DNA from: a virus
Lineage: Monodnaviria; Loebvirae; Hofneiviricota; Faserviricetes; Tubulavirales; Inoviridae
Strand: one strand, 5' to 3'
Virus record (IMG/VR): IMGVR_UViG_2529293040_000001
Length of the DNA: 9,032 bases
The notes under the pieces were generated by a model. It saw only the letters and a list, made by a program, of their open reading frames with translations, was not told the DNA's origin and made no database searches. Of this stretch, positions 6,719-6,854 are shown piece by piece; the stretch's first letter is position 1; each line of letters starts with the position of its first letter. The position numbers were made by a program, and so were the translations under genes.

Positions 6719-6854
6719 GTTTGCACCGCAATATATTTACCGCATGCGCGCATCATAATCACATTTAATGCGCGTTGTAAATACGCATGCGCTATGCGGG
6801 TGTAAAAAAATGGAATAATCACCTTCTATTGAAAGGACATAGAGGTAAATTTTG
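6719..6854. promoter_or_regulatory. Divergent promoter/operator region between the phage structural operon and the regulator gene
   Basis: Intergenic region between divergent genes. It contains a perfect 10-bp palindrome ATGCGCGCAT (6744-6753), the palindromic octamer CGCATGCG twice (6741-6748 and 6784-6791) and the related AATGCGCG (6768-6775). An AGAGG Shine-Dalgarno sits 9 nt before the regulator ATG. Confidence 0.45.

Follow-up and report, generated by a model that had tools for sequence, protein, structure and literature searches.

GCATGC boxes between the divergent rep and regulator genes of a CTX-like Escherichia coli filamentous prophage are likely operators of a small RstR-type repressor

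The 9032-nucleotide (nt) stretch analysed here (IMG/VR record IMGVR_UViG_2529293040_000001; hereafter the window, with all coordinates counted from its first letter) is a CTX-like filamentous (inovirus) prophage in Escherichia coli, located beside hipA and a dif-like junction. The short region between its rep operon and a divergently transcribed regulator gene contains the hexamer GCATGC and degenerate versions of it. These boxes are most probably the operators of the small divergent regulator, a repressor of the RstR type that would silence the rep genes of the prophage. The initial annotation, made from the sequence alone, had proposed palindromes in this region as operators for either the regulator or Rep. 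The first proposal is borne out as the most likely one, with the motifs acting on the rep promoter; the reading rests on conservation tied to the type of regulator, on positions relative to the promoters, on joint replacement with the regulator allele, and on covariation with the N-terminal strand of the protein.

Three genes frame the region:

5325–6521, minus strand: Rep, 398 amino acids (aa) from MKPVQ, Rep_trans family, RstA-like (Pfam PF02486, E = 1.9e-21)
6521–6718, minus strand: phrog_3104 (unknown function), a 65-aa open reading frame (ORF) at the head of the rep operon
6855–7136, plus strand: regulator gene, 93 aa as the window reads (its length is discussed below)

Rep shares 33% identity with CTX RstA across 95% of its length and is the gene presumed to be controlled by the boxes. 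The gap that bears the motifs measures 136 nt between the divergent ATGs of the 65-aa ORF (6718, minus strand) and the regulator (6855, plus strand). The perfect 10-base-pair (bp) palindrome described at the outset, ATGCGCGCAT, is found at 6744–6753 as the sole exact copy. The octamer CGCATGCG has exactly two copies in the 9032 nt, at 6741–6748 and 6784–6791, spaced 43 bp from start to start as originally recorded. This is above chance, with 0.17 copies expected and two or more copies in 2 of 200 shuffles; the direct repeat around the octamer extends to CGCATGCGC. A related motif, AATGCGCG, is at 6767–6774. The hexamer GCATGC occurs three times in the window, at 6608, 6742 and 6785. Five boxes are distinguished in the gap:

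6742–6747: box L1, GCATGC, core of CGCATGCG at 6741–6748; about −2 to +4 of the predicted rep promoter
6750–6755: box L2, GCATCA, degenerate, 8 bp from L1; overlaps the −10 of the rep promoter
6769–6775: box M, TGCGCGT, degenerate, part of AATGCGCG; in the promoter spacer beside the −35
6785–6790: box R1, GCATGC, core of CGCATGCG at 6784–6791; 3 nt upstream of the rep −35
6792–6797: box R2, CTATGC, degenerate, 7 bp from R1

Tandem boxes phased by 7–8 bp are present on both sides (L1/L2, 8 bp; R1/R2, 7 bp), with the second box of each pair degenerate. The 10-bp palindrome is the L1/L2 junction. Comparison of aligned lineages and distant relatives identifies paired GCATGC hexamers, 7–8 bp apart, as the functional unit, and not the 10-mer or 8-mer palindromes as such. 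The original view of palindromes as operator units is modified to this extent: the GCATGC boxes are likely operators, but the 10-mer is not itself conserved and is broken in L009 and L010, which read ATGCGTGCAT. The third perfect GCATGC (6608–6613, context ACGCATGCAA) lies within the 65-aa ORF, 134 bp from box L1, and could be an auxiliary operator or a chance occurrence.

The boxes are placed around the following promoter elements:

6776–6781, minus strand: −35 hexamer TTTACA of the rep promoter (consensus scan)
6752–6757, minus strand: −10 hexamer TATGAT of the rep promoter (consensus scan)
6811–6819, plus strand: candidate extended −10 of the regulator promoter, TGgAATAAT (read from the sequence)

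The consensus scan predicts a sigma-70-like promoter on the rep strand, TTTACA-18-TATGAT, with 10 of 12 matches. A promoter of the form TTTACA-18-TATnAT is predicted at the homologous position in four lineages (the window, Xenorhabdus, Photorhabdus and Gilliamella). The usual 7-nt distance to the predicted −10 would put the start site of the rep operon near 6745. Box L1 lies on this start site and L2 across the −10, box M is beside the −35 in the spacer, and R1 is located between the −35 regions of both divergent promoters, that of the regulator being a candidate. The candidate regulator promoter has a poor −35, which would overlap R1/R2. A −10-like hexamer is found ∼24 nt past R1 in most of the eight lineages described below (seven, by eye), so that R1/R2 would cover the −35 of the regulator promoter.

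Relatives of the regulator were gathered from inovirus prophages of Salmonella, Xenorhabdus, Arsenophonus, Photorhabdus, Gilliamella and Vibrio. A profile search of genome contigs with the regulator alignment yielded three loci, and most of the diversity came from IMG/VR and single-protein look-ups. The upstream regions of eight lineages (E. coli, Salmonella, Xenorhabdus, Arsenophonus, Photorhabdus, Gilliamella, the Vibrio anguillarum phage VAI and one further IMG/VR contig) were anchored on one shared word, giving a gap-free alignment; all eight share the divergent 70-aa regulator. The aligned segments are 42–76% identical overall, and 46–55% between the window and the others. Their consensus is atattTAc..CATGC.cacAT..TA..ca.Aa.....gcatg.TGTAAATACGCATgCg. 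Within it CATGC (6743–6747) and TGTAAATACGCAT (6776–6788) are invariant in all eight lineages, with fixed spacing between them. The left box and its distance to the right box are kept in all eight without gaps; the right box is kept in seven and reduced to GCATAC in one. At the box M column, GCATG is present in four of the eight (TGCATG or GCATG).

The same arrangement extends beyond the aligned set. A Vibrio cholerae pre-CTX phage with a 70%-identical RstR carries GCATGCGCGCAT and ACATGCACGCATGC at the matching places. At the R1/R2 site, Salmonella relatives (L020) read GCATGC-G-GCATGC, and Vibrio relatives read GCATAC-AC-GCATGC or ACATGC-AC-GCATGC. The distant relatives L066 and L072 have no TGTAAATA block, yet contain four or five GCATGC, including perfect GCATGC-NN-GCATGC pairs with the same 8-bp phasing as L1/L2. 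Counts of GCATGC range from 1 to 5 per intergenic region, against 0.02–0.14 per 140 nt in the surrounding loci. The 15-mer TGTAAATACGCATGC has 35 matches in IMG/VR; 25 of them are without a regulator gene on the stretch examined, and the 15-mer alone is therefore not diagnostic. Where it stands beside a gene of the regulator family, it is 60–80 nt upstream of that gene in 10 of 10 IMG/VR loci. The conservation in related prophages that the initial annotation had named as a check holds for the left hexamer and the spacing in eight lineages and for the right hexamer in seven; the motifs are absent where the regulator allele differs, as in the E. coli AST217 phage described next.

The boxes are exchanged together with the regulator. 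The exchangeable unit, an immunity cassette, is as follows:

6689–7066: 5′ end of the 65-aa ORF, intergenic region and regulator gene

In E. coli AST217 (L002), Rep is identical at 398 of 398 residues, and the intergenic region and the regulator are replaced as a block. The L002 intergenic region has no GCATGC and contains its own CATGA-type repeats instead; its regulator is a different allele of the same family, phrog_2503. The reciprocal case is found in the IMG/VR loci L009 and L010, where an identical cassette (about 6689–7073) is embedded in a diverged backbone. L002 and L009/L010 are thus instances of the block swap between otherwise identical phages, with heteroimmune alleles, that characterises immunity cassettes. 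The recombination boundaries in L009/L010 are sharp: one falls early in the 65-aa ORF, within its first ∼10 codons, and the other directly past the regulator stop. Phages with a different Rep family (Phage_CRI/G2P_X_C; Gilliamella L022, and L072) keep the boxes. The boxes are also kept in phages where no 65-aa ORF separates the regulator from Rep (Gilliamella L022, L072, pre-CTX L062 and VAI L063).

Each type of N-terminal strand in the regulator goes with its own repeated motif:

T-x-V-R-(I/V)-N, 11 lineages: all GCATGC
TT(V/I)AIN, 3 lineages: ACATGT twice each, no GCATGC
TTVRID, 1 lineage: CGTATACG
SYNVPN, 1 lineage (L002): TCATGA repeats
AIAITE, 1 lineage (L003): GTTAAC repeats

This covariation has a Fisher p of 8e-5 when lineages are treated as independent. 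It is consistent with direct readout of the hexamer by the strand, but is no proof of it. The palindromic 6-bp boxes, together with the covariation of residue 13 (Arg/Ala) and the outer base pair (G/A), would fit an obligate dimer that reads the major groove with its paired strands.

The regulator itself had been described as a 93-aa protein, a length that is not upheld. Six single bases are missing from the window in comparison with its closest relative (at 1555, 2002, 4232, 4850, 6803 and 7049), every one of them inside an A or T run. These look like sequencing or assembly errors and not biology. The A-run at 7050–7056 is A7 in the window and A8 in 15 of the 15 other E. coli-lineage sequences. 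With A8 restored, the regulator has 70 residues, a C-terminus of KKKKAM and a TGA at 7064–7066. By this comparison the 93-aa reading is a homopolymer frameshift artefact, caused by the one missing A, and 70 aa is the normal product. The same type of error, a homopolymer deletion, explains the split Zot gene of the window. Another family member, P0101, also has a C-terminal extension, through a frame change in the same lysine-coding A-run; since the extension recurs in P0101 and the window, the run is error-prone or slippery in more than one record.

All regulator alleles belong to one family, phrog_2503, annotated as of unknown function in PHROGs. The window regulator is 69.6–71.4% identical over residues 6–61 (tblastn) to the annotated rstR or RstR-like products of CTX, pre-CTX and VAI1/2. 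The ∼70%-identical proteins are RstR of pre-CTX strain 17449, RstR of CTX strain IB1617 ('environmental RstR') and the 'RstR-like' protein of V. anguillarum VAI1/2. As far as tested, no homology to the classical ET or class RstR alleles was detected. The family may reach further. rstR-6, which begins MKKKYTSLRV, falls in the same family according to its primer sequence and is a lead only, a blastn search with the primer giving no match. In the 'major intergenic region' of If1 (U02303, L064 1501–1650), a classical non-integrating E. coli phage, translation of an unannotated stretch gives a sequence related to the regulator at 44% identity (tblastn E = 6e-5).

The regulator probably adopts a ribbon-helix-helix fold. 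An AlphaFold monomer model built with 74 family members (predicted local distance difference test, pLDDT, 93) has an extended N-terminus followed by helices at residues 16–33 and 39–69, a strand-helix-helix topology similar to that of solved ribbon-helix-helix members. A first model from 25 close sequences reached a pLDDT of 75, and its Foldseek search against the PDB returned no match. Sequence-based searches gave little: no Pfam model scored above threshold (ParG appeared in 1 of 25 members, E = 0.025), the regulator profile found nothing in the PDB below E = 0.05 (TTHA0139, E = 0.29; ParG, 0.5), and a PDB sequence search with the L002 allele found nothing significant.

These observations can be assembled into a model of repression. 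The 70-aa regulator, probably as a ribbon-helix-helix dimer, would recognise the 6-bp palindrome GCATGC. Adjacent boxes 7–8 bp apart would permit dimers to bind cooperatively, much as other ribbon-helix-helix repressors do. The two box pairs are 43 bp apart, about four helical turns, which would place both on the same face of the DNA, and they may be bridged. Occupancy of L1/L2 would cover the −10 and the start of the rep-operon promoter, and occupancy of M and R1 would flank its −35. Occupied boxes would silence the rep operon, with its 65-aa ORF and Rep, as well as the phage genes downstream, and the outcome would be a quiet prophage together with a block on superinfecting phages of the same immunity type. 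The regulator probably autoregulates, because R1/R2 overlap the expected −35 of its candidate promoter. What the sequences show is the motifs, their conservation and placement relative to predicted promoters, the cassette exchange and the covariation; that the regulator binds, cooperates or loops, in which direction it autoregulates and where transcription starts are inferences.

Several points weigh against this model. The promoters are predicted from consensus matches; that proposed for the regulator (6811–6819) is tentative and was unreported by the consensus scan, which also gave a second candidate, GTGAGA-16-TATATT, at 6710–6737. A cassette swap replaces the promoters as well and does not, on its own, single out the boxes. 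The lineages behind the covariation are not fully independent, so that it may reflect one or two evolutionary events. Finally, in E. coli E100341 (L003) a gene closely homologous to that of the regulator (89% nt identity) lacks GCATGC in its upstream region.

The L003 locus (2775–3486), beside hipA, belongs to a different inovirus with a 666-aa replication endonuclease and a run of three small regulator genes. GTTAAC repeats precede the first, which is a phrog_2503 allele; the homologue of the window regulator, lacking GCATGC boxes, comes second; and the third encodes a phrog_5219 protein that resembles RstR-calc, judged by primer sequence. The placement of rstR-calc in phrog_5219, also suggested by primer sequence, is a lead only. 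A 45-nt direct repeat flanks the second and third genes. The L003 regulators may be captured 'orphan' repressors that confer cross-immunity.

An alternative to the operator model is that the conserved blocks are only promoter elements or host-factor sites, with GCATGC incidental and the small protein acting elsewhere. The most conserved block, TGTAAATA, is indeed identical with the −35, and the left element contributes its second CAT to the −10. In YpfPhi, RovA, a regulator of the host, binds in the region of the rep promoter (PMC4266046). However, GCATGC is conserved outside the RNA polymerase hexamers and reaches up to five copies in L066 and L072, which are without TGTAAATA. The hexamer also switches to ACATGT, GTATAC, TCATGA or GTTAAC with the regulator allele although the hosts overlap. 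As for a particular host factor, no LexA box (CTGT-N8-ACAG, at most one mismatch) was found in 6719–6854; the sole match in the window is at 1734. This explanation is therefore considered unlikely.

It is somewhat less likely still that the boxes are bound by another phage protein, such as the 65-aa product. This ORF directly adjoins the boxes, and its first ∼10 codons are within the exchangeable cassette. Boxes nevertheless persist in the four phages listed above that are without it, and the hexamer varies in step with residues of the divergently transcribed regulator, both of which argue against the 65-aa product as the binder.

The second half of the original proposal, that the palindromes are sites for Rep, is rejected. 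Rep_trans initiators act on inverted repeats and the boxes adjoin the rep operon, as would suit a binding or nicking site (plus-strand origin) of a rolling-circle Rep. The identical Rep of L002 nonetheless occurs with a wholly different intergenic region devoid of the motifs, and this largely rules out a Rep-binding site. The persistence of the boxes in the Gilliamella and L072 phages with another Rep family, and of the cassette beside the diverged L009/L010 backbone, argues the same way, as does single-strand folding no better than that of shuffles (z = −0.9 and −1.2). A role for Rep is highly improbable.

Equally improbable is a role as folded single-stranded DNA, for instance in a minus-strand origin or packaging signal. 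Filamentous phages do use intergenic hairpins, and several lineages have an imperfect inverted repeat of 13 nt, ATTTAC..CATGC / GCATG..GTAAAT, but the predicted folding energy does not differ from that of shuffles on either strand and leaves the hairpin or origin unsupported, the box M arm varies freely in E. coli lineages with no compensating change in the other arm, and a large non-coding region with a strong hairpin and dif-like sites exists elsewhere (7137–7650).

Box M behaves differently from the other operator candidates. The related motif noted initially, AATGCGCG, is present, but it coincides with the most variable spot among close relatives and amounts to a degenerate third box. The 378-nt cassette (6689–7066) was compared in 16 E. 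coli-lineage sequences. Six of its eight substituted columns fall in 6769–6775, that is, in box M (P ∼4e-7 after correction). The remaining 371 nt have two changes only, and the regulator gene is invariant. Six haplotypes are found at 6768–6775 (ATGCGCGT, ATGCGTGT, ATGCGTGC, ATGTGTGT, ACACGTGT and ACACGTAT), which differ by transitions only. Selection may lie behind this variation, acting on the strength of repression or favouring escape from a resident repressor; alternatively, box M may be a mutational hotspot, for example through templated changes in a quasi-palindrome.

A bolder extension combines the covariation with the box M variation, and is offered tentatively as the less probable outcome. 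In this proposal the small RstR proteins would follow a code in which residue 13 reads the outer base pair of N-CATG-N (Arg with GCATGC, Ala with ACATGT) and residue 15 reads the centre (Asp with GTATAC). Immunity groups would then be defined by this code in inoviruses from at least six named genera, RS1-env of epidemic V. cholerae among them. Box M would be under diversifying selection in E. coli prophages, tuning the leakiness of phage production or allowing escape from a resident repressor.

The closest known systems are RstR and ig-2 of the V. cholerae phages CTXphi and pre-CTXphi and of RS1. There, too, a small repressor is divergent from an rstA-type rep gene with operators in a short intergenic region, and repressor and intergenic region are swapped as an immunity-defining cassette, as in the relatives of the window. 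The pre-CTX ig-2 with the ∼70%-identical RstR carries the same boxes as the window, and the position at a dif-like junction is shared with CTX-type phages. In the window, a small regulator with RstR homology likewise lies divergent beside a Rep_trans gene in an inovirus. Unlike CTX, the window has E. coli as its host and structural genes unrelated in sequence. RstR-ET and RstR-class, which have been studied well, are helix-turn-helix proteins of ∼112 aa; they act as tetramers on long operators, with LexA as co-regulator, and a LexA site in the intergenic region is a feature of CTXphi-ET. The window regulator differs from them as a 70-aa predicted ribbon-helix-helix protein with 6-bp palindromic boxes and an intergenic region without a LexA site. 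In E. coli reporters, eight RstR alleles repressed their own ig-2 promoter and not those of others (PMC11509585); the allele closest to the window regulator is not among the eight. No description of an operator for the small RstR type was found in the literature searched.

Short tandem boxes are familiar from ribbon-helix-helix repressors: MetJ with its 8-bp met boxes, omega with 7-bp heptads, CopG at the repB promoter, and Arc and Mnt in P22 immI. The window regulator has no significant sequence match to these families. Particular to the present family are the long extension of the third helix (residues 51–69) and the 43-bp pairing of two box clusters. YpfPhi of Yersinia pestis and CUS-1 of E. 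coli K1 are enterobacterial dif-integrated inoviruses that, like the window, have two divergent transcription units. The RstR-like gene YPO2273 of YpfPhi, likened to the window regulator by position only, occupies the same place and its role is untested (PMC4266046). Pf4r of the Pseudomonas phage Pf4 is also an immunity repressor of a filamentous prophage, from a different repressor family. Immunity-altering mutations of Pf4 accumulate in and next to the repressor gene, which is reminiscent, as an analogy only, of the box M hotspot. The Pf4 immunity repressor controls superinfection (PMC8402870).

The principle is not new, repressor/operator cassettes between divergent promoters being textbook phage biology. 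Modestly new are an RstR-type member in dif-associated prophages of E. coli and a predicted operator for the small RstR type, as well as the strand-to-hexamer covariation and the box M hotspot. The analysis proposes a function and a putative DNA target for phrog_2503, a family listed as unknown in PHROGs and for which no Pfam model passed threshold. It would account for the way in which a family of dif-associated filamentous prophages is silenced in diarrhoeagenic E. coli, in Salmonella and in insect-associated bacteria. It also links E. coli prophages to an RstR allele on the CTX, pre-CTX and RS1 elements of current cholera strains, the IB1617 type of RstR being located on the RS1 satellite of current strains from the Democratic Republic of the Congo (PMC11395875). 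The predicted boxes and the Arg/Ala–G/A covariation are targets for mutagenesis aimed at the immunity groups of toxin-carrying filamentous phages.

The rest of the window, as described by its ORF map and Pfam matches (Rep_trans, Zot, secretin and coat-like proteins), is organised as follows:

1–1260, minus strand: secretin
1439–2313, minus strand: Zot/pI gene, in two pieces
2630–4234, minus strand: long Gly/Thr/Ser-repeat protein, presumably the adsorption protein
4552–4827, minus strand: coat-like protein
7731–9032: hipA

The element is present in 33 of 5426 complete E. coli genomes, including enterotoxigenic E. coli E24377A, and adjoins hipBA in all five E. coli genomes whose surroundings were inspected. 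A megablast search of the whole window against phage records gave no match. At the end of the large non-coding region, two inverted sites bracket a GC-rich hairpin (7587–7620) within 7558–7651, and the host junction is at ∼7651:

7558–7585, plus strand: dif-like site 1, AGTGCGCACAA...TATGTATAAAA
7651–7624, minus strand: dif-like site 2, GGTGCGCATAA...TTATGTTGAAA

Both sites are dif-like by comparison with the E. coli dif sequence. Together with the hairpin, they resemble the folded single-stranded attP of CTXphi. In the putative adsorption protein, an 18-nt repeat array at 2950–3330 encodes (GT/GS)n; its units vary among strains, and blast aligns it in several registers.
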